Of a stretch of 64,000 nucleotides of DNA, positions 2,979-38,329 are shown in pieces; positions within the stretch are counted from its first letter, which is position 1, and each line of letters starts with the position of its first letter. The notes under the pieces were generated by a model. That model was given only the letters and a program-made list of their open reading frames with translations, was not told where the DNA came from and ran no database searches. The DNA is from Mytilus edulis (taxonomy: Eukaryota), in NCBI RefSeq assembly GCF_963676685.1, contig NC_092346.1:16120001-16184000 (forward strand), written 5' to 3'. A program made the translations under genes and the position numbers.

Positions 2979-4643
2979 TGCCCGCGTCACACTGTCCCGA
3001 TTTTTACGCCGATGGCAAAACGATTATGGAAATTTTCAAAATCGGGACTGGTCGTATCCAGATCGGGCTATTCGTTGTGCCATCTTTAACCATCGTAAAA
3101 CCATCGGCCACTTTTTCTAGCCTTCAGGGACAACTTCGGGAAGGTTCTAAATTTTTTAACATGTTAAAAAATCCCCGAAGGTGCGTCCGATGTTGAGGGT
3201 TCGTATTGAGTTCGTATCACCATCCTCAACATCGTAATGTCACCGGGAATGCATCTTTGAACATCGTATTGCATTCGTGTTTCCATCGTTTTCATCGGGC
3301 AGTTTTGACATTACGATGTCTACACGAATGAATCACGAAGCTACCCAAATGTCTTACGATGGCAACACGACTTCGTGAAGACCTCGTAATCCCGTCGTGT
3401 TGCCATCGAATAAAAGTACGAAGGCGACAAGATGGAACTACGACGGCAATAAATCCAGCTGAATGTAAGTTAATTTTCGCGCTAAAATACATTTAAAGTA
3501 TCATGCGCGATATGCACTGGTCAGTCTAATACGATAGTTAAGAAAGACGTTCACAAAACATGGAGCTCATATCATATGATTCTATGAGAACAAGAAATGC
3601 GACAGCGTTGTTTCTATTAATTCAAATGGAACAAGAAGAGCAGCTATTACAGGCTCAGGATTTACTTTTACAAGTTAAATATTATTTTTTGTCAATTTTT
3701 CATATCAAGTAACATAATGAAAATCATAAACGCGCCTCGTACACCAACACTGCAGGTACACGTATATAGGGAAATCAACTTTTTTTTCGTTATTCTGATT
3801 TTTTATGTATCGTCTGAGTTGTTGTCACACGAATGTTTATTCCATAACCATTTTGTTTTCTATATGTCATATTTTGCCGTATTTGTTGCTTTCCCCACAT
3901 CCTTCTTTTTGTCTATAGTATTATGATATTCTCCTGGAAAGAGCTCTTTTTGAATAAAAGGGATCAACGAACCCATTACCTTACCTTTAAGATAGATCAG
4001 TAAACATGGGCATAATTATGGGTGATTATTCAGACTAGTGCACACATTTTACAGTTCAAAAAAGGCAATGCCGAGCGTGGCATCCCCTCGTATGTAACAT
4101 ATTGGGGATAAATATGGACACTATATTTGTATATGACACATGCAGAAAATGGTAAATTGAATATGCATATTTGATACATAAACTATTTTTTTTAGAAATC
4201 AACCAAAACATTCAGTAACTGGAAATACCTTTAATATTGTCTTTAGAACCAGCAGGGAAAAAAATGAGCAACCAATTTCCTGTGTATTATGCTATTTCAA
4301 GCTGTTACAGTACACGACGTCTTTTAGACATTGTATGGACATCGCGCCATCATCGTAATCCATCGTGTAGCCTTCGTAATCCATCGTGTAGCCTTAGTGA
4401 TCCATCGTGTAGGCTTCGGCTGAGATATGAAGCTTAAATACCCGTCTTCAGTTAACCTTCGTTTGTCCATCTTTTGCTATCGTATATAATTTCGGCACTA
4501 TCGTATAGACTTCGTTATTCATCGTACTTGCTTCGGTCACTTTTTGGTATTTTAACGAGATCGGGACCAACTTCGTACGAACTTACAATTTTCGCATTCG
4601 GGTGTCCATCGTATATAAAAATCGGGACAGTGTGACGCGGGCA
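2979..4643. mobile_element. Non-autonomous PIF/Harbinger-like DNA transposon
   Basis: TIRs are TGCCCGCGTCACACTGTCCCGATTTTTA / TAAAAATCGGGACAGTGTGACGCGGGCA. TAA flanks both ends (2976-2978, 4644-4646), and a 3-bp TAA TSD is the PIF/Harbinger signature. CATCG/CGATG subterminal motifs are present and there is no transposase ORF. Confidence 0.85.
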
Positions 4644-6538
4644 TAAACGTATGCAACTATGTTGTGTTGAGTTTTAAAAGTAAAATAACAAAAATACCAA
4701 ACTTAAACGAAAAATTAAATAAACAAATCCCTTATCTAATGGCAAAGTCAAAGGCTCAAACACATCAAACAAATGCACAACAACTGTCATATTTCTGACT
4801 TAGTACTGACATTTCTTAATGTACAGTACTAGTAGTAAATGGTGGACTAAAGCTGGTTTTATAGCAGCTATATGTAACTAAACTTCCCACTTGTATGGCT
4901 GTCGCATACTATTCCACTATAATGAACAAAACAAAAAATAATGAAAACAATGTGTAAACAAGACAAACAGACATAGTATATCATGGTAAACATGTCGAAA
5001 AAAAAAAAGCGGTACAGCAGTCAACATTGTGTGATAATGTTGGTCATTATAAAAACAAAGAAACATCCTACAACAAAAAGAAAATGGCAAAATGACTTTA
5101 CATTTGGTAACTTTTGTCTTGTAACTTTAATATATTATCTTATGATTGCTACGGAAAATAGTCTTATCAAAAAGAGAAAGAGAAAAGTATAAGGCTTATT
5201 TTTGCCCTTTAACTTAAAAAACCCAAACTAAACAGTATTATAAATCTTAAAATTACACACAGGGAATTGATTGTACTAAAAAGCTTTTATTAAACAAATA
5301 CACCACTTTTATAGCGTACACACAATAGAGTTGTTCTGACAAATAGTTAGATATTGTACACTCAGTCTATATAAACTCGCCACAATAAATGTTCAAATGG
5401 TTTTCTTTTGAAGAAAACCATTTTTTTTTATTAATATTCGTGATTTTAGAGCTTCTTTAAAATTAATTTCAATTTTACTTAAATTACTATTGCATTTATA
5501 TACACCATAAATAGATCGTTCATTACAAATAGATTACTTTGCCGTCAAACTAGTTTTCATACAAAACGCCATTGTTCTTTTTTTTTAGGAGACTTAAACC
5601 CATTAAATATCTGTCGATTTCATGAACCTCTGGTCACTGTTAGTCCTGTTTGGTTTTTTTTAATTACGGTTTACTTATATGTTTCGGAGTGTAGTCCATT
5701 TTCGATGAACTAGTATATATACATATTTTTTTCAAGGACCATCTGAAGGCCGCCTCCGGTTTCGGTATTTCTTGCTGTGTTGACGACACATTAGTCGCCT
5801 TGGGCTGTTTTCTGCTCTTTGGTCTGGTTGTTGTCTCTTTGACCATGCCATTTCCTGTTTCCATTCTCAAATTTATTGAAATTTAAAATGCAATGATCCA
5901 ATCCCTCATGCTTCTAGTAACGAATGTTAAAATCTAACACATAAAATAACGGTTGTAGAATATATACAATAACTATATCTACGCGTGCGTTTACTTTTAC
6001 TTATTTTACTAAAACCACCTATCTTAGCCGGATACTCTTGTCAACTTTATTTATTTACTAGTAGAACATATTTTAACTACCTCAGCCGAGTATTGTTATG
6101 AATCTGGGTGCTTTCGCCAAAAATCAATTTCGCCCCCTATCACATTCGCAGGCAACACGTTCGTACCCCTTTTGTTGGTTTCGTGTTCATTAATCTTTAA
6201 TTGTGATTAAGTAAGTGTATTACCATACTGGTTTAGAAATAAGTTGTTTCTATTGTTTCAAAATGAAGAGACATTTTCAAAACGGAACCATGTTTCCTAA
6301 AGTGTACGTACGCTAGCTGACCCGATAACTATTTTACAGTGTAAATAAATTATTGTGCCTTTAGTATTACCGATTTCAGATGGAGACTGCTGAAGTAACT
6401 ACCGCTGTACTTTACTTATTTTCCTAGTATTTCCTACCTCACTCGGAGACTGAATTCTACTGGTTTGTTTACCTGTATTTCCAACCTTAGCTGATAATTA
6501 CTGAACTTATAGAATGTATCATATACTTATTTTTCTAG

Positions 6539-17847: not shown

Positions 17848-18267
17848 ACTGGATTTTTTCTACATAAGTTTTGACAGATAGTCAAGTTAATTATAAGTTT
17901 TATAGTGGATTTGACATTCCCGCCAAAATGTTACAGAACGAAGGAAAGCAAGCAAAACAAAGAAACTCCAGCTGGGGTGATCTGGCAGGGGGATCCGGCT
18001 CAGATCACCCCTGGTAGAACAAAGGAGCTGGGATGTAAAATTGAGAATTTGTTTTCAAGTTCTAATTTTATGAATTATTTTTACTTACCAGTCAAGGAAT
18101 ATACATAAGGATTATCTCCCTTACAACGTTCTCATAACTCGCAACACCTGGATGATTTCAAATTCTATCTAACATTGATCATACGGGTGAAGGCCTCCTC
18201 AGTTTATCGGCTGGAACAAAATATTCCTTATACCGAAAATTATTTATAACTGGGGAGGTGGTGCGAG

Positions 18268-18380
18268 CCTTGACTGGTAAGTAAAAATAATTCATAAAAT
18301 TAGAACTTGAAAACAAATTCTCAATTTTATATATATCATATATATTTTTACTTACCAGTCAAGGAATATACATAAGGATT
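18268..18380. repeat. DIRS internal complementary region (ICR)
   Basis: It is the reverse complement of 18036-18095 joined directly to the reverse complement of ~23430-23488. Confidence 0.9.
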
Positions 18381-18636
18381 ACTACTGATTTCAAAGCAGT
18401 CTGAACCTTAGGAGGAGTGTTATAAATAAATTATCTCACCTGAAGAGACTTTCTACAACACATCTAATAACAGAAAACTTCTCTGTGATTCTTTGTCATT
18501 TCAACTTCATCATAAGTTCAAATGCAGTTCATAGTTAAAAACATATAAAAAACTTCCACCATATAAAAATGCTTCCACCAATAACATTTTAATGAATAAC
18601 AAAAAACATGCTGTGCAACTCGCCGAAAATATCAAC

Positions 18637-19630
18637 TTAGTCTATTTTCTGTAACACAATTACATCTAATTCACGCAAATAAAATCTACTAAAGGTAGAT
18701 TCCGAACTCCAATCTGCAGATTCTAAGATCGAATTGATAGATGCTCCTTTAAAGAATGCCCAAGTCGGACCAATAGCTTTTGTAGAATGTGCATGTATTT
18801 TCCCTTTTTTCCCTGAAGATTCAGAGTCAGAATAAGCCTGTTTAATAATTTGAACAATCCAATGTGAAATTGTCTGAGAGGTAACTGGTTTGTGAGGTTC
18901 ACATAAAGCTAAAAATAATTTCCTTCTTTGGTCCTGCTGTAATTTTTTTTCGCAACGGTTTTGTTTTATCTAAATATTGTAACAAACTTTTCCGTGGATC
19001 TAAAGAGGTATTCTCAGTGTATGTAGGTACGAAAATTTTTGCTCCAAAATGTTTCTCCCTATCCTGTTTGGCTAGGCCATGTCTTATAAACGTAATTCCT
19101 TTAGTCTGTATTCTCATGGAGCCTTCATCCGTTCTTAGTGCCTGCAGATAGCTACATCTCCTGAATGTAGTAATGGCAGTTAAGAATACAGTTTTTAAAG
19201 TCAAATCTTTTAAACTCATTTGTTCAACATTGTCAAAAGGACTATTTTCTAACATTCTTAAAACTATGTGCAAATCCCATTCAGGTAATAGTTTTGCAAC
19301 TGGAGGTCTTGTATTGAAAACACCTTTAATCAATCTAATTATTTTAGGATGTTGTCCAATTTGGAAATTATCTATAGGAGGTAATACTGTGGACAACATT
19401 GAGCGATATCCTGCAATCGTTCTGTATTGCAAACCACTATCAAATAAATATGATAAAAAATCAGCTATCTGACTTAAAGATATTTTATAGGGATCAATTT
19501 TCCTTGTACTACACCAGCTATTGAACCTTTTGAATTTTGAGCAGTAATCTTTTTGAGTCCCTTCCCGCCATGAGGCGGATAGTAACTCTCTAACCCCTTT
19601 AGAAAAGCCTTCTGTTGTAAACTTTGATAG
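18637..19630 (-). pseudogene. DIRS tyrosine recombinase (frameshifted)
   Basis: N-terminal SAM-like part (WREGTQKDY..F..WC) and LTLKTVFLTAITTFRR are in ORF 18899..20371. After a frameshift near 18950 it reads IHAHSTKAIGPTWA...ADWSSESTFSRFY, stop at 18637. Confidence 0.9.
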
Positions 19631-21625
19631 AAGCCATGCAGTCAGCTTGAAAACTTGTGGATTGGGATGATAAATCCGAGTTTTCGGTTGACATAACAAT
19701 TCTGAAATTACTGGTATCCTGATGGGAACTGCTATCAATAATTGAAGCAGCTCTGGGTACCAATGTCTCCGTGGCCATTGGGGAGCTATCAACAAAATCT
19801 GACACTGGTACTGCCTCATATATTGCAAGCCTTTTGGGATCAGACAGATTGGGGGATAAGCATAGGCGTACATTCTCTCCCATGAAATTGTCAAAGCATC
19901 CAGAGCTAAAGCTTTCTGATGTGGGATCCATGAACAAAAAATTTCTGTCTGACGATTGTCTATTGAGGCAAATAAATCTATGAGAGGAGTCCCCCAAATT
20001 TGAAATAGATTTTGAACCACAAGTTTGTTCAGAGACCATTCTGTATGTTGAATTTTGGTTCGACTGAGTTGGTCTGCTAAAATGTTCAATTTTCCAGTTA
20101 TATGAGCAGCCTTCAATCGAATATTGTTTTGAATTGCAAGATTCCATAAATCCCATGTTTGGTAGCAAAGAGTGGGCGATTTCGTCCCCCCTTGTTTGTT
20201 TAATATATATTGGACCACTGTGGTATTGTCCGATCTTATCAGAACATATTGACCTTTCAACTGATTTAGGAAGTGTTTCAGCGTTAAAAACACTGCTTCC
20301 AATTCTAGGGAATTTATATGTTTCTTGCTCTGCATTTCTGACCATTCCCCTTTAAAAATTTGATTGTTCATAAAACCCCCATACCCGGTTTTGGAAGCAT
20401 CTGTCGTTATATATGGTGACAGAAGTCTGAGCCAGTTGAAAATATTGGCCTCTCAGCGTGTTTGCTGAATTTTTCCACCAACTGAGATGTGATTTCAGAT
20501 GTGGTGTAACTGGGATCTTTATGGACAGATCTTGACAACTTGGTCTCCAAAATGAGAGGAGATGTAGTTGAATAGGTCCCATGAACAAGCGTGCATTCGG
20601 AATTAACTCTATGCAAGATGCCATTATGCCTAGTAATTGTAGGAAGTGAAATGCTGACACTGCATTCCCTGATGAAAGAATTAATATCGCCATATTCAGT
20701 TTGGCTATTCTTTCCTGAGTTGGGCAAACAAGCCCCTTGTCCAAATGAAACTGCCCCCTAGGTATATCAAGTTTTGAGTTGGTACTAGACTTGATTTTTC
20801 TCTGTTGATAAGAAAACCTAGTGACATTAGGAGATCGAGACATTTCTTCCGATCTTGATATAATTGATCCTTGTTTTGATTGACTACTAACCAGTCGTCT
20901 AGATAGACTGCTAGTCTCACATTTTGAGTTCTCAGAAACGCTGCTACTACCGAAACCATTTTTGTAAAGACTCTCGGAGCAGAAGTTGGTCCGAAACAAA
21001 GAACTTTCCACTGATAACACTGGTTCTGAACAGAAAATCTGAGAAATTTGCGATGTTTCTGAAATATTGGGATGTGTAAATAAGCATCGCTTAGATCTAG
21101 AGAAATGGCCCAGTCTCCTATTTTTACTAAATTTAATACTTTTGTGAGAGTGTCCATTTTGAAATGTATTTTCTTGAGATACCTGTTGAGGGGTCTGAGA
21201 TTTATTACTGGTCTCATTGTCCCATTCTTTTTGGGGACTAGAAAAAATGTACTGTAGAAACCTGTTGCTGCATCTTGCTGGCGAATAGGTTCTATAGCGT
21301 CTTTTTCTATAAGAGTATTTATTTCTTGGATTAAAATATCCGAGTCTTTTAAAGACACAGAGGTTTTCCGTATGCCTGTCCAAAATGGCATTTTTAGAAA
21401 CTCTAGTTTGTAACCCTCTGTTATTACTGACAAGACCCATTGATAGTCTGTTATTTTTTCCCAATTGTCCCGAAAAAATCTTAGACGACCCCCAACTGGT
21501 ATCTCGGCCTGATTCTGATAAATTATTACCTTCAACTCTGAGTCAGCTACTGTTTTTCTTTGGGATCCGAAAAGAATTCCAGTTGCCACCTGCTTTCTTT
21601 TCTTTATCTTTTTTCCCAAAGTCAT
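19625..21625 (-). pseudogene. DIRS pol: reverse transcriptase, RNase H and DAM-like methyltransferase domain (frameshifted)
   Basis: RT motifs FLVPKKNG.MRPVINLR, SLDLSDAY, FGPTSAPRVFTK and YLDDWL. RNase H motifs HINSLELEAV, SDNTTVV and NILADQLSR. MT motifs DLFAS and YAYPP. Split over three ORFs. Confidence 0.92.
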
Positions 21626-21847
21626 CAGTCTTATTGTCGTTCTGGAACTTCCTGGGAGCAGATCTCACAGAAGATTTATTATAATTAAAACCTGAGCGTT
21701 TATCAGCTGAATTAGCATTGTTATAATTAACATGAGTAGAACTATTATTAGAACTATATCTAGGAGCTTTATTTTGCCAATCTTGACGCACCTGAGTTGA
21801 TTCAAACTTTCTCTTATTATTGTTTTTCTACTCTGGTAACAGATCGT

Positions 21848-23221
21848 CTAGTTTTTACGTTGTTCTTTACGTTTCTCAAGTTTGTCTTCCAAACCTTTAC
21901 CAAATACACCCTCATTCGAAAGAGGTAAATACAACACTTTAGCCTGTATATCTTTCAAGTTATTTAAACCAGACTCAGTAGCTTCAGCTTTCCTGCGTAT
22001 CATATGGTTAAACGCCCCTGTGCGTCCTACCTGATCAAGAGACTTTGTCGGAATGGCAAACAAGTCCTTCACCATTTGACAAGTTTCATCACTTACATTT
22101 TCATTTTCAACCCTCTCTAATAAGGTTCCTAATGTTTGTTGCATATACAACACTGATATAATACTCATACGTGAAGCCACCTGCCCTTGATAGGCTAGAT
22201 TTTCTATCTGTTTTAAAGGTTGAGTAACCAATTGCTTGTGTTTGTCCCATGACTTAACACTATTTGTACCATGAACAGTTCTTATCATTTCATCTAATAA
22301 ATCATCCAAACTGGGTACTTGCAAAAAGCTTTTAGATTTATCATTAACCGGAAAACAACTACGGTATTCATCTTTAAAAGCAGTAAGTTTCTCTGGATTT
22401 TTAGTTCTCCAGGAACGTTCTAGAATTCTAACCTGCGCTTCATCAATGATCAAGCCACCTGAATTATCAGACGATTCTGAAGGAATATCTTCCTTGTAAA
22501 GCTTAGACAATAAATTTAAATTATCTGACTGCTTGTCTACAGTTTTATTGTTATTATTATCAATGTTACTTGTTTGTCTCTGATTTGACTGACTTTCAAC
22601 ATTGTTATTAGTTATAGTAGGTTGAGTTTGTAGATATTGGCTAAATCTTTCAACATTTCTAGATTTAATGCCAGCCTGAGAATAAACACTAACAGGACTA
22701 CCAAGGCCACGAGAATATTCATCCTCTGATGAACATAGACCAAGTAAATCAGCCTTTTCACGACTGTCTATATGAAGAGAAATTTCTGACCTATTGTCAA
22801 AATCAACATTTCTAATAATTTTAGGACTTCCCAAGTCCTCATCAAGATTTGCATTCAAAGAAATTACCGGTCTACGCTCCCCTGTACTTGGGACGTTATC
22901 CGAACTTTGTTCTTTCTGCGTGGCTAAACCACCAGATTGAGAAATGTCTGCAACAGTCGAACTACCTGTAGTAGCACATGACTTGTTCAAAACTGCAAAT
23001 AACATATCTATTTTCTTATCAAACCTGTCTTCCATACTGGTTAACTTATTCTCAAGTTCAGCCGTCTTCGACACGCGTTTCTTTTTCTTTGAAGAAGAGT
23101 CTTTTGTTGTCCTCGCCATTTTTTCCACGAGAAAATCACCCGTTGGTGTTTCACCTGCACTATCTGAATCTAAATTTTCAGCATTTGCGTCAGCAAGTGA
23201 GTGTCTATACTCTTCATCCAT
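21848..23221 (-). CDS. DIRS ORF1 (gag-like), 457 aa; C-terminus frameshifted into 21543..21791
   Basis: First long ORF after the ITR. Ends with the DIRS-gag-like LPLSNEGVFG motif followed by a basic tail. Confidence 0.8.
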   Translation of the reverse strand: MDEEYRHSLADANAENLDSDSAGETPTGDFLVEKMARTTKDSSSKKKKRVSKTAELENKLTSMEDRFDKKIDMLFAVLNKSCATTGSSTVADISQSGGLATQKEQSSDNVPSTGERRPVISLNANLDEDLGSPKIIRNVDFDNRSEISLHIDSREKADLLGLCSSEDEYSRGLGSPVSVYSQAGIKSRNVERFSQYLQTQPTITNNNVESQSNQRQTSNIDNNNNKTVDKQSDNLNLLSKLYKEDIPSESSDNSGGLIIDEAQVRILERSWRTKNPEKLTAFKDEYRSCFPVNDKSKSFLQVPSLDDLLDEMIRTVHGTNSVKSWDKHKQLVTQPLKQIENLAYQGQVASRMSIISVLYMQQTLGTLLERVENENVSDETCQMVKDLFAIPTKSLDQVGRTGAFNHMIRRKAEATESGLNNLKDIQAKVLYLPLSNEGVFGKGLEDKLEKRKEQRKN

Positions 23222-26200
23222 CGTCCAATATGAACGGACGATAATATCAAACGTACATAAATAAAAATTTCAACGACGAGACTATACTAGAAAGTCTCAA
23301 AGTGAGAACGTCTTATTTTGTTGCCGCCGAAAGATAAACTGAGGAGGCCTTCACCCGGATGATCAATGTTAGATAGATGTTTGAAATCATCCAGGTGTTG
23401 CGAGTTATGAGAACGTTGTAAGGGAAATAATCCTTATGTATATTCCTTGACTGGTAAGTAAAAATATATATGATATATGATATAAAATCAGTGCACATGA
23501 CATGTTTGTTAACAATCGAATACTTTTTTATACGAACTTACCTTGGTGCCATTGTCACAACTTGATTTATTTCACTTTATTTCACTTGGCTGGGCGGAAT
23601 AATCGAATATGCGAAATTCATGAAATTATAGAGGATTTTGTATTTCGTAATTACCATTTTAAATATATGGAACATTATCAACGTGTAGAACGCTAGATGT
23701 GGGGTGTCGGCTATGTTTTACATGGTGGTGCGGTTATAAAACGGAGAAAAACGATAAAGGCAAGTTAAAGTATCAACATTTCTTGTTTGGGAATTGTTAG
23801 TACAAAATAATGTATTGCACCGAACCATAATCTATTTCCAGCATACAGAATTAGACATTTTCATTGGTCTGTTTTCTCAAACATTCTTCCTAGTTTTCCG
23901 TGTTGCAGATTTTTAGGCTTCATATGCAGGTTTTCAGGTAAACAACTACTTTTGACAATATGGTTTATAGAGAAATAAATTCATATCATGGAATGGTTTT
24001 AGATGGAAGTAACGCACAATTGATCAACTGACAGGTAATCGATCACAAATATATACGAGTACAACAAACGAACGTACACAATTTGGAGAACTTTTAAGGA
24101 ACTTTTAAGGAACGTAAACTAATTATGCACATTGGGGGCATGCTAAAAATTGTTATATCATTACATTAAATGCCTGTTGTTTGGATTATGGCACCTATCA
24201 ATGCAATAGCTCGTCCCTAATTGGCATCTGATTGCTGTGTTGTCAAAATCTGTGAACCGTATGTTTAGCTGATTTAATTCTTATGACAAAGATTTTAATA
24301 AAGTTTGCTCATTCTTGTTATCTGCTGGACAACACAAAAGAGTTTATAATTAACATTACAATATATAATACTTTAAAATTTTTACGAATCTGGGAATATT
24401 TAGGTAAATTTACGCGGGGTCAAATTTTCGCGTGTCCTTAGCTACAGCGAACAAAGCGAAAATTAAAAACACGCGAAAAAAACCCGATATACGGTAATAG
24501 ATAGAAATGTCAAAAAATTGATACATAAATAAAGACAATAGTAGGATACCGTTGTTCAAAAGTCATGAAACGATTGAGAGAAAACAAATCACGGTTACAA
24601 ACTAAAACCGAGAGAAACATATCAACTATAACAGGAAAACAACAAAACAACAGAACATGTGCTGCAAAAATGAAACTACAATGAAACATACATAGAAACG
24701 AACTATAAGATAACAACTGCCATATTCCTGACTTGGTACAGGACATTTTAAGAAGAAAAAAACGTGGGTACAACGTCAACATTGTGTTTTAATCTTAATC
24801 ACTATCAAAACAAACACATATGTAACAAAGAAACACAAAAAGGGTATACAGACAAAGCACAGACGCAAAAATAAAAGACGTTTATGTTGCTCGATTCCAA
24901 ACATTGTGAAGCATGAATTAAAAACCAATTGAAAATCCTTGAACTAAACAGTGGCGAAAAAAGCTGTGCCATATAACACTTTAGTTATCTATGCCTAAAT
25001 TTAAAGTCCTTAGTGTTCAATATAATATGATATTTAGTAAAAGTTCAGAAAATGTAAGTCACAATGATATTAAATGTCACTTAAAAAATGCTGTCTACTT
25101 GACTGGTGATAACTTCGGAACACCTCTTTCGATGATGTTTAGGTATAAATTAGATACAGACCAAAACCATTATAAAACTCTCAAATTTATCTTTAACGTC
25201 TAAGTTTTATAGTTTATTGTAAAACTGTGTCATATTTTTTCAAGGATTGCTTGGCCATTCCTATTTCGAGTTTTGTATCAGTTGACACTGAATACTTACA
25301 CAGTTATAGTTGAAGGGGCATTTGTTGTTAAATTCGTGCTCATCGATTTTAATAAGATTTTTATATTTGATTTATAACTTTATATCCGAATTATAAAAAA
25401 GTATAAATTAAACAATTTACATTGGACGAACTTGATAACATATATCAACATTTCGTATGTAATTTACTATTAGCATGTCGTAATGTTCTATTTGTTAATT
25501 TGTGTATTTCTCTGTCCTGAATGTTCTTCCGTTTATTTGTATATGTAGTCCTGTGATGTAATTTTGTCATTTTAGTGTTATATTTAACATTGCCATAAAT
25601 ACTGGAGGTTTAGCTAGCCACACAACCAGATTCAACCGAGCATTTTTCCTTAACATGTCCTGTTCCAAGTCAGGAAAAGGCAATTGCTATCTTATGATTC
25701 CTTTCCGCTTATATTTGATGTGTTTCCCTCAGTTTTAGTTTGTAACCCTGATTTGTTTTCTCTCATCGATTTATGACTTTATAACAGCGGTATACTATTG
25801 TTGCGTTTATTTTGTTCAACCATCGAGGTGACCTCCGAAGATTGCAGACAGTCATTTTACCCTATATAAACATAAATAGAGATATAAATAGAAAGCGAAC
25901 TCGTGTAACTGAATTTTTCTAACTCCGTTTGATTTCATACTATAGGTTAAACGTACATATTAATCATCGCGTATGAGAATAAGTTTTCTGGGATCGAATC
26001 AGTGAAATAATTGATTTATCCATGTTTATATTTTCATTGCTGACATTTTTTACGCTTAATAAATGAACACGTCTAATTCATGCGTAAACATCTGTAGCTA
26101 AGGGGTTAAATTGAAGGTCACATGCATACGGTTTCAATGACGTCAAATTATTTCTTATATCGTATTGTGACAAAAATTTAACCAAACTGTCTGCTTATAG

Positions 26201-27264
26201 CGAATTATTATTTGAATTTTTCACTGTCATTATTGATTAATAAAATCATTTTAATTTTTGTTTATTTCGTAGCTATTGCCTCCTTAAGAACCTTCACACA
26301 TCTTCATGTACGAAAATGTAGATACTGATAGATTGTCTTTAAGTGTATTAAATTATTAATACCTATTTAATTGTGTTATTCAAATACTAAACCAATTTCT
26401 TTTTGTGACCTGGAATTGCATTTAAAAATTCGTGTGACGTATTGACCTTACTGAATAGAGAAAACGAGTGTTGGCCTACATTGATCAAATTTGTAGATTG
26501 ATTCGTAATTATATTGTGTAGCTTTATATTTAAATTTCTCATTGAGTACAATAATGTTCAGGGATAGAGACATATAAGGTATGTTATTTTTTTACAATCT
26601 TTTTTCGATAAAGGAAATTCTGGAAAATTATCATTATATTTTTTCTGTTATTTTTAATTAAGTGAATACGATGGGTATACGCTATCAACAAACAACTTCT
26701 ATGTATAATGAACATGTCTATGTTGTACTATATACGTGAAATTATTTATGGGCTATTTTAACATCGAGATGACCGTGATGGCATTCAGATGTATTGCTAT
26801 CGCCTAGAATTGCACACGTAACTTTAGTTTTGGATTGTAATCGGTCTATAATAGATATAGGAAGATGTGGTGTGAGTGCCAATGAGACAACTATCCATCC
26901 AAATAACAATTTTAAAAAAGTAAACCATTATAGGTCAATGTTCGGCCTTCAGCACGCAGCCTTGGCTCACACCGAACAACAAGCTATAAAGGGCCCCAAA
27001 ATTACTAGTGTAAAACCATTCAAACGGGAAAACCAACGGTCTAATCTATATACTATTAGAATAAAAAAACGAGAAACGAGAAACACGTATAAATTACATA
27101 AACAAACGACAAATACTTTAAACATGATAAATACGCGGAAACTAACTAATGCAAACGAAAATCCCTTATTATCGTTTGCTATAAATACATCTCTTTAATG
27201 AATACAGATAAAAAATACTTTTGTTTAGAACCTAAATTAATCATATGACAATGTTTTATCGTTA

Positions 27265-27600
27265 GTCTAAACACCAACCCAACAATGTTAGATCTATAAA
27301 TTTGCTTTCGCAAATGTTTTGTTTTTCCCTCGCCGGGATTCGAACCCATGCTACTGAGATATCGTGACACCAAATCGCCTGCACTGTAACCGGCGGGCTA
27401 GACCACACGACCACCTGGGCTTCAGAAAATGAAGCTTTTGGTGGCCGGGTGTTACCTTTCCACGTCAGTTTTAATCTAGCGTCGTACTACAGTACATGAT
27501 ATATAAGGCATGAAGCTGTTATTTTTTACAGATCAGCTAAATCATCTATAGTAAAGGATCCTAGAAATTAATGTAAGATACAGTCACAGACATAATTATA
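27265..27600 (-). mobile_element. Truncated copy of the ~440-bp Pol III-box (tRNA-like) repeat unit
   Basis: Its reverse complement matches 30291-30627. It is cut just after TTTAGAC. Confidence 0.85.
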
Positions 27601-27608
27601 ACTATATA

Positions 27609-29025: not shown

Positions 29026-29644
29026 GGTTCGAATCCCGGCGAGGGAAGAACAAACAATTTGCGAAAGCAAACAGATCTAACATTGTTGGGTTAATGTTTA
29101 GACGAGTTGTATATACATAATGTACACAGCCATGTATCACCATCACTGCTGGTGATCCGATGGATAAATCTGTTGTAAAGTTGTCACTGGCTCAGACGTA
29201 CTTATAAATATAATTATTTTCTGTGACTGTATCTTACATTAATTTTTAGGATCTTTTTCTATAGATAATTTAGCTGATCTGTAAGAATAACATCTTCTTG
29301 CCTTATATATCATGTACTGTAGTGCGACGCTAGATTAAATCTGACGTGGAAATGTAACACCCGGTCACCGAAAGCTTCATTTTTTTTATGAAGCCCAGGT
29401 GGTCGTGTGGTCTAGCGGGACGGCTACAGTGCAGGCGATTTGGTGTCACGATATCTCAGTAGCATGTGTTCGAATCCCAGCGAGGGAAGAACCAAAAATT
29501 TGCGAAAGCAAATTTACAGATCTAACATTGTTGGGTTGATGTTTAGACGAGTTGCATATACATAATGTACACAGCATGTATCACCATCACTGCTGGTAAT
29601 CCAATGGATAAATCTGTTGTAGAGTTGTCACTGGCTCAGACGTA

Positions 29645-29647
<3 letters not shown>
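29026..29647 (+). mobile_element. 1.4-mer head-to-tail tandem of the ~440-bp Pol III-box unit, flanked by (TA)n
   Basis: B-box GTTCGAATCCC at 29027 and 29468 gives a period of 441. Tail-to-head junction CAGACGTACTTATAAATATAATTAT at ~29200. Confidence 0.85.

Positions 29648-29694
<47 letters not shown>
29648..29694. repeat. (TA)n microsatellite (others at 30162-30185, 30727-30758, 35282-35299)
   Basis: Directly visible. Confidence 0.95.
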
Positions 29695-29696
<2 letters not shown>

Positions 29697-30724
29697 TACG
29701 TCTGAGTCAGTGACAACCCTACAACATATGTATCCATCGGATCGCCATCAATGATGGTGATACATGGCTGTGTACATAATGTATATAGTACGCCGCTAGA
29801 TTAAAACTGCATGGAAAGGTAACACATGCCCACCGAAAGCTCTTTTTTTGAGAGCCCAGGTGGTCGTGTGGTCTAGCGGGACGGCTGCAGTGCAGGCGAT
29901 TTGGTGTCACGATATCACAGTAGCATGGGTTCGAATCCCGGCGAGGGAAGAACCAAAAATTTGCGAAAGCAAATTTACAGATCTAACATTGTTGGGTTGA
30001 TGTTTAGACGAGTTATATATGAGGGAAGAACCAAAAATTTGCGAAAGCAAATTTACAGATCTAACATTGTTGGGTTGATGTTTAGACGAGTTGTAGAACC
30101 AAAAATTTGCGAAAGCAAATTTACAGATCTAACATTGTTGGGTTGATGTTTAGACGAGTTGTATATATATATATATATATATATAACTCTTCTAAACATC
30201 AACCCAACAATGTTAGATCTGTAAATTTGCTTTCGCAAATTTTTGGTTCTTCCCTCGCCTACAAATTAATGTAAGATACAGTCACAGAAAATAATTATAT
30301 TTCTGTGACTGTATCTTACATTAATTTGTAGAATCCTTTACTATAGATAATTTAGCTGATCTGTATCAATAACATCTTCATGCCTTATATATCATGTACT
30401 GTAGTACGCCGCTAGATTAAAACTGACGTGGAAAGGTAACACATGCCCACCGAAAGCTCTTTTTTTTGAGAGCCCAGGTGGTCGTGTGGTCTAGCGGGAC
30501 GGCTGCAGTGCAGGCGATTTGGTGTCACGATATCACAGTAGCATGGGTTCGAATCCCGGCGAGGGAAGAACCAAAAATTTGCGAAAGCAAATTTACAGAT
30601 CTAACATTGTTGGGTTGATGTTTAGACGAGTTGTATATACATTATGTACACAGCCATGTATCACCATCATTGATGGCGATCCGATGGATACATCTGTTGT
30701 AGGGTTGTCACTGACTCAGACGTA

Positions 30725-30727
<3 letters not shown>
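29695..30727 (+). mobile_element. Rearranged array of the same unit: inverted tail, partial copy, two re-primed sub-repeats, inverted pieces and a full copy (30291-30727)
   Basis: 29695-29787 is an inverted tail; 29786-30013 is a + copy; 30021-30093 and 30094-30161 are repeats; 30186-30296 is inverted; 30291-30727 is the full unit. Confidence 0.85.
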
Positions 30728-30760
<33 letters not shown>

Positions 30761-30924
30761 GTCTAAAAATAGCAACAATCAACATTCAATCTAATTAAGC
30801 GTGGATCAGTTTGTGAAAATAAACTGATACAGTTACTGAATTAAAATTATATAAATGTCTAAGAATATAACTAAAACACACTAATTGATACATTAAAAAG
30901 TTCTATTAGATGTTAAATAGAAAT

Positions 30925-30963
30925 ACGCAATATTTCGCTAAACAAATTAGCTTCATCAGGCGT
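30925..30963 (-). ncRNA. Minimal type I hammerhead ribozyme (PLE-associated)
   Basis: Reverse-complement copy of 35172-35210. Confidence 0.75.
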
Positions 30964-31179
30964 GTGCATCTCTCAAGGTGAAATCGGATGCATGACAGAA
31001 AAATATTTTTGTAGCTTAATCTATACAAGATTTGAGGGATGGGTGTAACATATTAATTCGGTCATAAAATATGTTTGTAGCTACAACTACATGAAGTTGG
31101 AATAAAAGTTTAACACATTTATAGATGTTCGATTAATTGTATGAATTTTTATAAATTAATTTGTATGATTTCAAGATAA

Positions 31180-32843
31180 CTATGGTTTTGATTTGCTTTG
31201 AAATCTTTTTTCGTCTCTCTCATTGAGTCCATCAGGTTCAAGAGTTCGTAACTGGTGCATCCAAAATCTCTCTCTTTTTTGTCTTCCTTGTGTATCCCAA
31301 TTTTGATTTTTCTCAATGATTTGAAATGTGATGTTTTCAAAATCATGTCCTGCTCTTAAAAGGTGTCTTGTAATTGGGCAGTTCCTTTCTTTTGTATAAA
31401 ATGACCGATGGTTATTTAGTCGGATGTTAAATGGGGTTTCTGTTTCACCAACATATTGTAATTTGCAAGTTCCACACGTTAGAACATAAATGCAATTTTG
31501 CGTTTTGCAATTTGATGTTATAAATATGTTGTAATTTTTCTTTGTGACTGTGCTGATGAACTGGGTTTCTATATTTGCGACTTTGCAGCACTTACAATTG
31601 CCCCTTCCGCATTGTTTATAACCTCCGATTGTTGATATCTCCCGTTTAGATACTTTGGATGATACTAGAATATCTTTGAGGTTTTTTGGTCTGCGGTAAG
31701 CCATAACGGGAGGTGATGGAAAAATCTCGCTTAAGGAAGGATCATTTTCAATAAGACGCCAGTGTTTGTGGACAATTGATGAAATATTTGTCAGATGAGG
31801 ATGAAAGCTAACCACAAACGGGATTTTATTTGTCTGGGCCGTCTTTTCTTTGTATTCAAGTAGGTTTGTTCGTTCTTTTTCGTTTGCTTTTCCGAAAGCT
31901 TCTGAAATACTTTTGTTCTTATAACCTCTTGATTTGAGTTGCTGTCTGAGTTGCCCTAAACGATGGTTTAACTTTGATTCCGATGAAAAAATCCGTTTTA
32001 ACCTGATGGCTTGGCTGTACGGAATGCTCCGGGAGCAGTGTTTCGGGTGACAACTCTTCGGAGAGAGAAATTGGTGTTTATCAGTTTTTTTGGTGTGAAG
32101 GTCTGTTGTCATGACTCCGTTTTCTAAAGTTATGGTGGTGTCGAGAAACGCAATTTTCTCATTTGAAACTTCAGATGTGAACTTGATCGATTGATGAAAG
32201 TTGTTACAGAAATCGAGAAATTCTTGCAGGCGTTCTGCAGTTTCGTTCCATTTGATGTCGATGTCATCAATATAACGGAGCCAAGACAAGGGTTTGTATG
32301 GTACATTCGAAAGGATGCGTTCTTCGAGACTCCCCATGAAAATGTTGGCAAAAGAAGGTGCCATTTTGGTTCCCATACTGGTACCGTCAACCTGCAAGTA
32401 GTGCTGGTCGTTGAATACAAAATTGTTGTTTTCAAGCACTAGTCTCAGCAACTGAACCAGACAGTCTGTTGGGGGATGTTTATCCTTACGATTGTTCCAT
32501 ACCTGTTCACAAGCGACTATTCCTTCATTTTTGGGAATATTTGTGTACAAAGAAAACACATCCATCGATACCAAAATTGTGTTGTTTGGTAAGGGGTTTA
32601 ATGAATCCATTTTCTTCAAATAATCTGTAGTATCTTGAATGTAAGATGGCATTGTTCTAACATGTGGTCTGAGATGGTAATCCACGAATTCAGATATTTT
32701 TTCGGTTGGATGGCCATTTGCAGATACTATCGGTCTTCCCGGAATCCCTTCTTTATGGAGTTTTGGGAGCAAGTAAAATCGACCGGCTGTGCAGGTTTCA
32801 TCAGGTCGTAGATAGTCGTACGTGTCGTCATCAATATGTTTTT
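31180..32843 (-). CDS. Penelope-like RT + GIY-YIG endonuclease, N-terminally truncated
   Basis: LPKLHK, GRPIVS, GTSMG, RYIDDI, IPYSQAIR, CGRGNCKCC and CIYVLTCGTCKLQYVGET motifs. ORF 31180..32772. Confidence 0.92.
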
Positions 32844-34955
32844 CGCCTAAAAGAACATTTTAATAGGCAACACAAAAAAACCTTACAAGAAGCCGGAATG
32901 AATGATTCGGAATATGAGAGTGATAAAGAGGACAAGTGCATCCCAAGATTTAAAAAGAAAAGCGAATGGAATCCACCAAGGAGTAAGAACGACAATTTAG
33001 AATCCTTTATATCATCAATTAAAACTGAAGTAAAATCATCAGTCAGTGGCAAACGTTTAAGGAATCTCTCTGAACAAGAAAGCCAGGCCATAAATAATTT
33101 AAAAAGCCGTGATGATATTGTTATTAAACAAGCAGACAAAGGAAGTGCAGTTGTAGTGATCAACAAAACCGACTACATTGAAGAAGGGAATCGTCAGCTT
33201 ATAAATACAAAATTTTACAAACATTTAGAAAGTGATCCTACAAAAGAAATAAGTAAACAAATTAATGAGGTCCTTTCAGACATGAACAGCAAAAAACATA
33301 TTGATGACGACACGTACGACTATCTACGACCTGATGAAACCTGCACAGCCGGTCGATTTTACTTGCTCCCAAAACTCCATAAAGAAGGGATTCCGGGAAG
33401 ACCGATAGTATCTGCAAATGGCCATCCAACCGAAAAAATATCTGAATTCGTGGATTACCATCTCAGACCACATGTTAGAACAATGCCATCTTACATTCAA
33501 GATACTACAGATTATTTGAAGAAAATGGATTCATTAAACCCCTTACCAAACAACACAATTTTGGTATCGATGGATGTGTCTTCTTTGTACACAAATATTC
33601 CCAAAAATGAAGGAATAGTCGCTTGTGAACAGGTATGGAACAATCGTAAGGATAAACATCCCCCAACAGACTGTCTGGTTCAGTTGCTGAGACTAGTGCT
33701 TGAAAACAACAATTTTGTATTCAACGACCAGCACTACTTGCGGGTTGACGGTACCAGTATGGGAACCAAAATGGCACCTTCTTTTGCCAACATTTTCATG
33801 GGGAGTCTCGAAGAACGCATCCTTTCGAATGTACCATACAAACCCTTGTCTTGGCTCCGTTATATTGATGACATCGACATCAAATGGAACGAAACTGCAG
33901 AACGCCTGCAAGAATTTCTCGATTTCTGTAACAACTTTCATCAATCGATCAAGTTCACATCTGAAGTTTCAAATGAGAAAATTGCGTTTCTCGACACCAC
34001 CATAACTTTAGAAAACGGAGTCATGACAACAGACCTTCACACCAAAAAAACTGATAAACACCAATTTCTCTCTCCGAAGAGTTGTCACCCGAAACACTGC
34101 TCCCGGAGCATTCCATACAGCCAAGCCATCAGGTTAAAATGGATTCGTTCATCGGAATCAAAGTTAAACCATCGTTTAGGGCAACTCAGACAGCAACTCA
34201 AATCAAGAGGTTATAAGAACAAAAGTATTTCAGAAGCTTTCGGAAAAGCAAACGAAAAAGAACGAACAAACCTACTTGAATACAAAGAAAAGACGGCCCA
34301 GACAAATAAAATCCCGTTTGTGGTTAGCTTTCATCCTCATCTGACAAATATTTCATCAATTGTCCACAAACACTGGCGTCTTATTGAAAATGATCCTTCC
34401 TTAAGCGAGATTTTTCCATCACCTCCCGTTATGGCTTACCGCAGACCAAAAAACCTCAAAGATATTCTAGTATCATCCAAAGTATCTAAACGGGAGATAT
34501 CAACAATCGGAGGTTATAAACAATGCGGAAGGGGCAATTGTAAGTGCTGCAAAGTCGCCAATATAGAAACCCAGTTCATCAGCACAGTCACAAAGAAAAA
34601 TTACAACATATTTATAACATCAAATTGCAAAACGCAAAATTGCATTTATGTTCTAACGTGTGGAACTTGCAAATTACAATATGTTGGTGAAACAGAAACC
34701 CCATTTAACATCCGACTAAATAACCATCGGTCATTTTATACAAAAGAAAGGAACTGCCCAATTACAAGACACCTCTTAAGAGCAGGACATGATTTTGAAA
34801 ACATCACATTTCAAATCATTGAGAAAAATCAAAATTGGGATACACAAGGAAGACAAAAAAGAGAGAGATTTTGGATGCACCAGTTACGAACTCTTGAACC
34901 TGATGGACTCAATGAGAGAGACGAAAAAAGATTTCAAAGCAAATCAAAACCATAG
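32844..34955 (+). CDS. Penelope-like RT + GIY-YIG endonuclease (uninterrupted, native N-terminus missing)
   Basis: RLKEHF, IVIKQADKGSAVVV, LPKLHK, RYIDDI, the Cys-rich linker and GIY-YIG-type CIY..YVGET..R..NH..E..GLN. The first 46 aa of ORF 32706..34955 come from the inverted arm. Confidence 0.93.
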   Translation, partial: RLKEHFNRQHKKTLQEAGMNDSEYESDKEDKCIPRFKKKSEWNPPRSKNDNLESFISSIKTEVKSSVSGKRLRNLSEQESQAINNLKSRDDIVIKQADKGSAVVVINKTDYIEEGNRQLINTKFYKHLESDPTKEISKQINEVLSDMNSKKHIDDDTYDYLRPDETCTAGRFYLLPKLHKEGIPGRPIVSANGHPTEKISEFVDYHLRPHVRTMPSYIQDTTDYLKKMDSLNPLPNNTILVSMDVSSLYTNIPKNEGIVACEQVWNNRKDKHPPTDCLVQLLRLVLENNNFVFNDQHYLRVDGTSMGTKMAPSFANIFMGSLEERILSNVPYKPLSWLRYIDDIDIKWNETAERLQEFLDFCNNFHQSIKFTSEVSNEKIAFLDTTITLENGVMTTDLHTKKTDKHQFLSPKSCHPKHCSRSIPYSQAIRLKWIRSSESKLNHRLGQLRQQLKSRGYKNKSISEAFGKANEKERTNLLEYKEKTAQTNKIPFVVSFHPHLTNISSIVHKHWRLIENDPSLSEIFPSPPVMAYRRPKNLKDILVSSKVSKREISTIGGYKQCGRGNCKCCKVANIETQFISTVTKKNYNIFITSNCKTQNCIYVLTCGTCKLQYVGETETPFNIRLNNHRSFYTKERNCPITRHLLRAGHDFENITFQIIEKNQNWDTQGRQKRERFWMHQLRTLEPDGLNERDEKRFQSKSKP

Positions 34956-35171
34956 TTATCTTGAAATCATACAAATTAATTTATAAAAATTCATACAATT
35001 AATCGAACATCTATAAATGTGTTAAACTTTTATTCCAACTTCATGTAGTTGTAGCTACAAACATATTTTATGACCGAATTAATATGTTACACCCATCCCT
35101 CAAATCTTGTATAGATTAAGCTACAAAAATATTTTTCTGTCATGCATCCGATTTCACCTTGAGAGATGCAC

Positions 35172-35210
35172 ACGCCTGATGAAGCTAATTTGTTTAGCGA
35201 AATATTGCGT
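35172..35210 (+). ncRNA. Minimal type I hammerhead ribozyme (PLE-associated)
   Basis: ACGC-CTGATGA-A-GCTAA(TTTGT)TTAGC-GAAA-TA-TT-GCGT. Stem I is ACGC/GCGT, stem II is GCTAA/TTAGC, and stem III is a minimal palindrome (AATATT). Confidence 0.75.
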
Positions 35211-36054
35211 ATTTCTATTTAACATCTAATAGAACTTTTTAATGTATCAATTAGTGTGTTTTAGTTATATTCTTAGACATTTATATATATATATATATAA
35301 GTAAACAATCGTGATCATTGATAATATATATGCACACGTACCGAAAAATTGTGTTAAAGCATGCGGAATAATATCTCAAGAAGGTTTTGCGACAATGCCG
35401 GCAAGGACCGATAACTCTGTAATTGTTTTTGCGGGGAAATATGAATGCCTACTCATGTCCAATCTTTTAGAAAATCGAATTTTTACAGAAGAGTGTCCAC
35501 CATGCACTTGCACTGCAATATTATTAGAAAAGTAGAACAGAATGATTTACAAATTGATGAACATATTATATACATGTTACTGTTTTATTAATATAATATA
35601 TAACAACAAACTTGTGAAACTAATTTGTATCACTACAATATAATAGTTATTATGGTGAAGTTGAATTTCCTGGCATTGATTCATCATCCACGCACGAACT
35701 TGTCTCAGAAAAAAATATATCTGTGTACATTAACCTCAGTTTCAGGTATTGAGTTGATTTTTTTTCAGTGACAAGTGCCTTTGACCATCCACAAGAACTT
35801 GCGGTCATTCAAAATTTACTACAATAAAAACAATATTCCAATACCATATTACTGTGTTTTTTTTATTGGTAAACTTTTAAAATGAGTTTTGTATTAAGAA
35901 TTGATAGGTTTATACGCATCGCATCTGAATTTTTTGGTTCGATAAACAACATCATTGTAAAGTTGGGATGTTCTATTACGTTGTAATCAATTTTCTACAT
36001 GTGCTGTATAATTGTGACACAATGTTGAGTATTCTGTCTTATAAATGTTTCAGA

Positions 36055-37148: not shown

Positions 37149-38329
37149 TTATAAACTTAATTACGTGCTGTAGTGTTCTTTTATTTGTCTTTGTGAATTA
37201 TCACTTTTAATGATTATTCCATTCTATGAAATATCCCTTTGGCGCTTTTTTTGTCATGATGTTATTTGCAAGATATGCTCCTTTTTTGAATACCGGTCTG
37301 TCATTTTTGCTTTAGTCTCTCCTGATATTTGTGTTTGTTTTGATAGTGATTAGGAATATATTTTAACATCTTTGACTGCTGTACCTCTATTTATTACATT
37401 TTTACCTATTATGTCTTTGTTTTGTTCACATATTGTTGTCAATATAATGGATTTCCCGTTTGAATGGTTTAACACTAGCAATTTTGGGGCCCTTTATAGC
37501 TTTTTGTTCGATGTGAGCCAAGGCTCCGTGTTGAAGGCCGTACATTGACCTCTAATGGTTTACTTTAATAAATTGTTATTTTGATGGAGAGTTGTCTCAT
37601 TAGCACTCACACCACATCTTCCTATATCTATTTATGTGACTGTCATACTGAGACTGAGAGGTTTAGCAAGCAATAAAACCAGATGTATCAATAATTTGTA
37701 TAGGGTTGACAATTGTTTTCTATTCGTTTGATTGGTTTATGCTTTTGAATTTGAATTTTGATAAGGGACGTTCCGTTTCAGATTTTCTTTGGAGATGGGA
37801 AGTTTTGTGTTTGAACGGGGCAAATGTCAATTTTTACAGAAAAATCTATTTTTGGTCTATTTTTTTATGTATAAATTACTGCTTTGGAATAAGACTCGAC
37901 ACAAATAGTTCTATCTAACTTTTTATCATGTTTTTTAATCAACTTCAAAGATTTCTTATCTTTAAAAATTTAACTTAAAAAAATCGGTACAAAAAATGAA
38001 TGTACTTATACAATTCTGATTGGATAACTATTATCCAGATTACAAACAATAACACAATTATCAATCTTTTGATATAAATGATATGAAAATTTCAGCTGTC
38101 AATAATTCTTTATTTTCGTTTTTACTTTTCAAAACATATACCTATTAATTTAATCATGTTACATGTACTCTTCAAGCTCCAGATTTGTATCGGTTGATCC
38201 GTATAATCTGTGTTTAATTTTTTTTTTATAATTTGTAATGTTAATTTGATTCATGTTCTACAGTTTTTAAAGGATAAAGCATTGACTGATTTTTTTTATT
38301 GATACAATTTGGTATGCATCTGGTAATAA

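Follow-up and report, generated by a model that had tools for sequence, protein, structure and literature searches.

Two fixed ends of a Neptune-type Penelope-like element of Mytilus edulis, and of a tRNA-headed repeat beside it, carry a duplicated motif, TA-seed and hairpin module that likely marks internal starts of reverse transcription

The reverse transcriptases (RTs) of Penelope-like elements (PLEs) are the closest relatives of telomerase. How these enzymes choose two start sites inside their RNA, and why their insertions form inverted arms with a tail on one side only, is the question raised by a stretch of Mytilus edulis DNA (contig NC_092346.1, positions 16,120,001 to 16,184,000; 64,000 nucleotides, hereafter the window), where several copies of a 442-bp tandem unit (the small unit) adjoin a PLE. 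A preliminary description, made from the letters of the window, had noted that both elements end in AGAC followed by TA, and had read this as an RT recognition or priming signal that anneals to nicked (TA)n and is mimicked by the small unit. We find that copies of both elements end at two fixed sites, each with an AG(A/G)C word, a TA seed and a hairpin downstream. These are probably the two internal sites at which the PLE RT starts on its RNA, copying from nicked (TA)n, and the small unit is probably a passenger with the same pair of signals.

PLE copies were followed from an upstream anchor (n=44, one of the two source match sets being biased to copies that reach end 1). Nineteen of the 44 stop at the first site (end 1) and 23/44 reach the second (end 2), one of these running on into the element; the remaining 2/44 bear an internal change, one ending at end 2 and one at end 1. 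All 43 true PLE ends (43/43) lie at one of the two sites, which are 96 nt apart, and the (TA)n runs at PLE ends measure 8-88 nt. The + arm in the window ends, as described previously, with TTAGAC at 35273, then ATT and (TA)n. The - arm does run on to a second TTAGAC (30766-30761), its extra length being 96 nt and not ~90 (the first motif lies at 30862-30857). The parts of this insertion are the following.

32843..35287, + strand: 5'-truncated Neptune-type PLE arm that stops at end 1 (RT, linker C-X4-CxxC, GIY-YIG; the frame ends at 34955)
30759..32846, - strand: inverted PLE arm of the same insertion, stops at end 2 and bears the 96-nt tail
35172..35210, + strand, with a mirror copy at 30925-30963, - strand: predicted minimal type I hammerhead-like motif of the PLE (sequence pattern)
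35273..35301, + strand: PLE end 1, TTAGAC-ATT-TA seed into (TA)n
30847..30862, - strand: PLE end-1 motif, read through in the - arm
30803..30830, - strand: PLE hairpin 1 (GT-AT...AT-CC, 8 bp), 32 nt downstream of the end-1 AGAC
30759..30766, - strand: PLE end 2, TTAGAC-AT-TA seed; hairpin 2 lies another 33 nt on, in full-length copies only (L185 region)
30727..30758, no strand: (TA)n common to the small unit (end 2) and the PLE (end 2), tail-to-tail

The small unit was sampled in 82 regions on contig C1 (pattern matches taken by position order, with an anchor ~210 nt upstream of end 1). Its arrays end at two sites 94 nt apart in 77/102 cases (65 and 12), in windows that make up 12.7% of the unit (p about 1e-47); the 5' ends are scattered, with 16/102 in the same windows. 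This enrichment disposes of the chance similarity that the preliminary description had allowed for such a short motif, and the gathering of breakpoints at the motifs holds for both elements (PLE, 43/43; small unit, 77/102). The two alternative small-unit ends given there were confirmed (TTAGAC at 30004 and 30150, TCAGAC at 29636 and 30716), their spacing being 94 nt against a claimed ~95, and so was the copy at 27265 on the - strand that breaks straight after TTTAGAC, at which, however, there is no TA run. The consensus itself had to be amended: AGAC plus TA recurs at the ends, the TT between them is not general, and the families give (T/C/A)AG(A/G)C-N1-6-TATA. A seeming accumulation of 5' ends in the interval between the small-unit sites was discarded, as it is explained by the query and is not clearly present in the anchored set. 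The copies of the small unit in the window, with the parts that concern their ends, are listed here.

30291..30726, + strand: small unit, young subfamily, + arm of a head-to-head pair, stops at end 2
30186..30291, - strand: small unit, - arm of the same pair, stops at end 1 (AGAA variant)
30622..30637, + strand: small-unit end-1 motif TTAGAC-GAGTTG-TATATA, read through
30658..30682, + strand: small-unit hairpin 1, 36 nt downstream of the end-1 AGAC
30716..30730, + strand: small-unit end 2, TCAGAC-GTACT-TATA
30311..30336, + strand: small-unit hairpin 2, in tandem copies 37 nt downstream of the end-2 AGAC; also at 29229
30385..30392, + strand: internal TA seed without AGAC, almost never an end; control
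29695..29787, - strand: small unit, short - arm, stops at end 2
29763..30165, + strand: small unit, + arm paired with the preceding one, stops at end 1, then two short re-starts with the same stop at end 1
29027..29650, + strand: small unit, older subfamily, 1.4 units in tandem, stops at end 2
27265..27606, - strand: older small-unit copy, broken directly after TTTAGAC

Elements stacked tail-to-tail in one (TA)n run were observed at 29650-29695 and 30727-30758 of the window and at loci L341 and L342; each insertion thus seems to leave a fresh target. The short re-starts at 30021-30165, each of which stops again at small-unit end 1, suggest repeated priming at one site.

Head-to-head pairs place one arm at each site. 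This was found in 14/14 PLE-A pairs (one locus, in which an arm runs on, was omitted) and, counted by eye, in 9/11 pairs of family B and 4/5 pairs of another clade (C/D/E). Small-unit pairs show the same arrangement in 13/15 cases (16/18 before three duplicated loci were dropped; p 2e-6 versus 26% expected); 17/35 small-unit head-to-head junctions found had an arm ending elsewhere. A tail on one end only is described for PLEs (PMC8557442, PMC3846280). The obedience of the small unit to this pairing rule is the strongest sign that a PLE enzyme moves it, and upholds the link between the two elements drawn in the preliminary description.

The large element has a single open reading frame comprising an RT and, at its C terminus, a GIY-YIG endonuclease (EN; Pfam RVT_1 and GIY-YIG matches), the EN carrying a CCHH motif in its protein sequence and the RT-EN linker a C-X4-CxxC finger. 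A CX2-5CxxC finger in this linker marks the Neptune (or Nematis) clade (PMC8557442); judged by its protein sequence, the element is a Neptune-type EN+ PLE. Copy L185 has the tandem structure of pseudo-long terminal repeats (pLTRs), and the inverted structure with a one-sided tail was found in 14/14 PLE pairs. Pattern and fold predict a minimal type I hammerhead-like motif in the pLTR (35172-35210); Rfam over the region returned no hammerhead and no tRNA, giving sub-threshold hairpin matches only, which stem from inverted repeats and TA runs. That the PLE family is young is seen in its 3' region, whose best 40 matches are all 100% identical. Intact frames of 911-959 codons, of family A or B, are present in L210, L216 and L217.

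Full-length copy L185 passes the hammerhead motif as well as both ends, beyond which it runs ~80 nt to the ATG, and the family B element likewise continues past both sites. Because the full-length PLE extends so far beyond end 2, the sites appear to be internal and not RNA 3' ends; the earlier account was right that copies have fixed ends here, and its reading of a 3'-end motif has to be amended to that extent. The internal sites of L185 agree with in vitro measurements on a lizard Poseidon element, which has two internal RT start sites (Frangieh 2024, PMC11167929).

A third TA seed lies inside the small unit, of the same length as the end seeds and without AGAC. It is present in hundreds of small-unit copies examined and in RNA. 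Genome-wide, junctions into six TA pairs number 1,834 at small-unit end 1 versus 1 at this internal seed: a TA seed alone does not make an end. The G within the end-1 seed of the small unit reads A in 23/172 terminal versus 2/201 internal copies (p 9e-7), the change expected at terminal copies if a (TA)n primer pairs across the seed G. The junctions thus support that the target end anneals through the seed. The annealing to nicked (TA)n proposed in the preliminary description therefore applies to the TA seed, AGAC being unable to pair with (TA)n.

The reach of the motif was followed by a GIY-YIG profile search of the genome, which gave 150 matches; the examined set comprised 30 loci and 40 further regions, and other TA-targeting PLE families emerged. 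In families A1 (80% identity), A2 and B (52% protein identity) the two sites lie 89-94 nt from each other and both carry AG(A/G)C, and families C, D and E (about 33% identity) have two ends 36-40 nt apart without the motif. Among families picked by protein similarity and not by motif, AG(A/G)C stands at 8/8 ends in A1, A2, B and L348, and at 0/6 in clade C/D/E. In a midpoint-rooted tree of nine proteins, all from this genome, the AGAC families A, A1 and B group together on a single well-supported branch. L348, a locus from another sample, has the complete module, which was found in 3/41 screened metagenome loci (of 57), namely L348 and two close to the families of this genome; the other loci are without it. 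AGAC is therefore conserved across PLE families down to 52% protein identity, as the preliminary description would have it, in a clade-specific manner and with AGGC tolerated. Clade C/D (L211 and L170, one run-through copy each) has TATA..TGTACA shortly after each of its two ends, a tail of 37-40 nt and an ATG about 25 nt past end 2; the recurrence of TGTACA after both ends suggests that duplication of a downstream signal may be general.

Further repeats were seen alongside these families. Family S4 (L178 1-640, L169, L203) combines a canonical hammerhead text with the two-site module; its period is 557-569 nt in two loci, and it is possibly a true retrozyme that would use the A/B-type PLE clade. 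A 476-bp tandem sister of the small unit, ~60% identical (L184 region G000:C12:1128042, L242, L172), has a tRNA-like head, both AGAC sites and hairpins. A third repeat (L233, L008) has a B-box-like motif and ends in TAGGC before (TA)n. Loci L150, L151, L344 and L345 hold distant PLEs with an AT-stem-ATCC hairpin downstream of the hammerhead, at another spacing to the end.

Each site is followed by its own hairpin, 31-39 nt after AGAC, so that the complete module reads (T/C/A)AG(A/G)C, N1-6, TATA, hairpin. The preliminary description, correct in not letting a TA seed suffice, overlooked this part and took AGAC and seed for the whole signal. Hairpin 1 lies between the two sites in every family and is closed by G(T/C/A)-AT and AT-CC. 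Across nine PLE-type sequences 93% of cells are paired and 5/7 pairs have changed on both sides, against 6-45% in slid controls; the shuffle test of this hairpin is inflated by kinship among the nine sequences. A covariance model trained on PLE modules only also flagged a second match, starting at end 2. PLE-A, B, the small unit and S4 do have a hairpin 2, built like the first, at 31-37 nt past end 2, and A1 and the sister unit have a looser version of it; the background rate is 4/1,807 unrelated AG(A/G)C sites. The region between and beyond the ends thus reads as a duplicated module. A structure common to the surroundings of AGAC themselves was looked for and not found.

Could the two sites be cut in DNA instead, the endonuclease recognising AGAC-N-TATA in a complementary DNA (cDNA) intermediate or tandem precursor and resolving it there? 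Craig 2021 (PMC8557442) attribute the tail to resolution by the endonuclease, the tail of Drosophila Penelope is needed for endonuclease recognition (as cited in Frangieh 2024, PMC11167929), and new copies often insert in (TA)n beside an existing end. We nevertheless regard cutting in DNA as unlikely. Covariation and G-U pairs in the hairpins speak for a single strand, annealing of the primer to RNA accords with the G-to-A change at junctions, and hairpin 2 is never in the copied end, so that it would act only on a template or precursor, most likely the RNA template. Moreover, the sites inside tandem arrays are mostly intact in run-through copies (210 and 201). A hairpin that sets the start by distance on its own, with AGAC a relic of common descent that is not read, would be in keeping with the tight spacing (31-39 nt), with the tolerance of AGGC and the few ends that read AGAA or AGAT, and with distant relatives that have the hairpin but no AGAC at their ends; it is quite improbable, as both sites carry AG(A/G)C in families where the sequence around them has diverged and neither AGAC word of the small unit is anything but an end. 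That the two sites are RNA 3' ends, made by cleavage or termination, with copying begun at the RNA end, is very improbable: a T4 tract does lie ~20 nt past small-unit end 2, but the PLE ATG is ~80 nt beyond its end 2, and small-unit reads pass both sites with no molecule-end pile-up listed, in fragmented libraries that show ends poorly. Finally, the shortness of the motif and the AT-richness of the genome lend hardly any credence to the notion that only the TA seed matters, the AGAC likeness being chance and the small unit being moved by another enzyme, since 1 versus 1,834 junctions at an equal seed already contradict it and spacing, hairpins and the one-arm-per-site rule are the same in both elements.

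Several observations weigh against our reading of the sites as internal starts with a common signal. Twenty-five of 102 small-unit arrays end elsewhere, and no sense RNA read spanning PLE end 2 was found among the 39-83 reads per run, most of which come from stubs. For the Poseidon element, initiation has been reported in the absence of homology to the cut DNA (Frangieh 2024, PMC11167929). Families F, G and S4, the 476-bp sister unit and another tRNA-like repeat came via the AG(A/G)C filter and are illustrations, not independent tests; end 1 of S4 is without a clean TA seed. Distant relatives H (37%), L344 and L345 keep a similar hairpin at a different spacing to the end. Under the PLE-only covariance model the small unit falls in register with a score of 19-24 bits (E 0.3-1.9), which is not significant alone; 2/4 PLE-A copies and the single A1 copy failed the strict ATCC test for hairpin 2, and 40 small-unit copies mismatch at its pair 3. 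The need for RNA downstream of the start sites in vitro (Frangieh 2024, PMC11167929) speaks for internal starts.

On the basis of these results we propose the following sequence of events. Insertions lie in (TA)n and stop at two sites. The GIY-YIG endonuclease, as established for PLEs, would nick AT-rich DNA and the 3' end would serve as primer; this end, as the junctions support, would pair with the UA seed, copying beginning 1-9 nt downstream of AGAC. The protein would bind the hairpin 31-39 nt downstream of the site, AGAC serving as a second, clade-specific determinant. As there are two modules per RNA, the nicks on the two strands may be extended from one module each; a junction between the far ends of both cDNAs would then produce head-to-head arms, of which only one has a tail. 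The small unit would be transcribed from its tRNA-like head, presumably by RNA polymerase III and probably as a circle or multimer, and copied likewise into tandem arrays. A more far-reaching model, which we put forward tentatively and which may nearly as well be right as wrong, is that the duplicated clade-specific start module brings two RT subunits onto a single RNA, letting each of the nicked strands be extended and so producing the inverted arms and the one-sided tail, and that the 442-bp unit founds a group of tRNA-promoter, ribozyme-independent, probably circular PLE passengers, similar to short interspersed elements (SINEs), that evolved or captured the whole module. What is offered is a concrete sequence-and-structure signal that is open to direct mutation in the published in vitro assay and that comes with compensatory changes and a natural negative control; if the proposal is true, a module of ~60 nt would turn any RNA into a template for insertion targeted to (TA)n.

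The putative passenger itself is abundant. One search of the genome gave 3,257 small-unit candidates, and two exact patterns at least 4,662 units (1,710 + 2,952); up to 8 units of 442 bp stand in tandem. Identity within arrays exceeds the mean identity between arrays, which both rolling-circle copying and later duplication fit. The internal parts of the unit in the window are these.

30423..30459, + strand: hammerhead-core-like text CTGACG[T/A]...GAAAGCTC, function doubtful
30456..30473, + strand: short stem with a T-run loop, directly before the tRNA-like head
30472..30565, + strand: tRNA-like head with A-box-like and B-box-like motifs (sequence)

The head with its motifs resembling the A-box and B-box consensus is found in the sister family too; ARAGORN and Rfam gave no tRNA match on the small unit. 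The stem before the head is kept, with changes on both sides, in the subfamilies and the sister family. RNA of the small unit is abundant and of one strand, with 3,956-6,111 reads per run among 7-9 million records in three stranded runs of one study, and fewer (508) in a fourth run. Reads span the whole unit, and 355-456 per run cross the unit junction in the three runs, circle and multimer being alike in such data. The AG(A/G)C PLE clade, an assignment at the level of the clade and not of a single family, likely spreads this highly transcribed tRNA-headed repeat.

Two other classifications of the small unit were considered. The hammerhead-like core reads CTGACGA in 1,710 units (about a third, the canonical form) and CTGACGT in 2,952, and all copies in the window have the T form; stem II is 1-2 bp, folding does not predict a hammerhead, and the core is missing from the 60%-identical sister family. 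A working hammerhead retrozyme thus became less likely and, stem II being minimal and the core absent from the sister family, the unit is not filed as a retrozyme. A tRNA-derived SINE monomer copied from the RNA 3' end by a long interspersed element (LINE) was rejected, as the ends are internal and the unit forms tandem arrays and PLE-type inverted pairs.

Elsewhere in the window, 18033-23488 on the - strand holds RT and tyrosine-recombinase-like frames with split or inverted terminal repeats, probably a DIRS-like element, and a separate dispersed repeat family of ~260 bp occurs at 26849-27112, 37448-37632 and 62068-62318.

The PLE tail, internal initiation, the TA bias and non-autonomous PLE passengers are already in print. 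The literature searched, which did not extend to subscription journals, repeat databases and the supplement of PMC7229834, showed neither the motif-seed-hairpin module nor a PLE passenger with a tRNA-like head. Published PLEs (PMC11167929, PMC8557442, PMC3846280) resemble the present one in having two fixed ends with the tail on one arm of inverted insertions, starts that lie within the RNA and downstream of the hammerhead, targets rich in AT and a need for downstream RNA in vitro. Their tail is 30-40 nt, in contrast to 87-96 nt here, and each start here has a motif, a target-matching seed and its own hairpin, whereas no such signal is named for PLEs in the available text of these reports.

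Animal non-LTR (long terminal repeat) retrozymes (Cervera and de la Pena 2020, PMC7229834; Li 2026, bioRxiv 10.64898/2026.07.22.740005) are likewise short tandem non-coding units with abundant RNA, for which PLE enzymes are proposed as movers. The unit described here is 442 bp and not 350-390, has a tRNA-like head and a doubtful hammerhead, and is unlike the PLE end region outside the module; the start signal that the two elements share is identified here. Non-autonomous elements of Chlamys such as MRC1 (Craig 2021, PMC8557442) are also head-to-tail PLE passengers with 3' end features of their partner. MRC1-type elements share plain sequence similarity with that partner, whereas the small unit shares a degenerate motif-plus-hairpin module only and has a tRNA-like head. 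tRNA-derived SINEs and miniature terminal-repeat retrotransposons (TRIMs) with RNA polymerase III promoters (Martelossi 2024, PMC11481361; Kojima 2024, PMC10886601) are similar in the tRNA-like head and in being non-coding passengers with the recognition signal of their partner. Those partners are LINEs or LTR elements, the word Penelope being absent from both main texts, and in contrast to such SINEs and TRIMs the small-unit arrays are circularly permuted, start internally and form inverted pairs of the PLE type.

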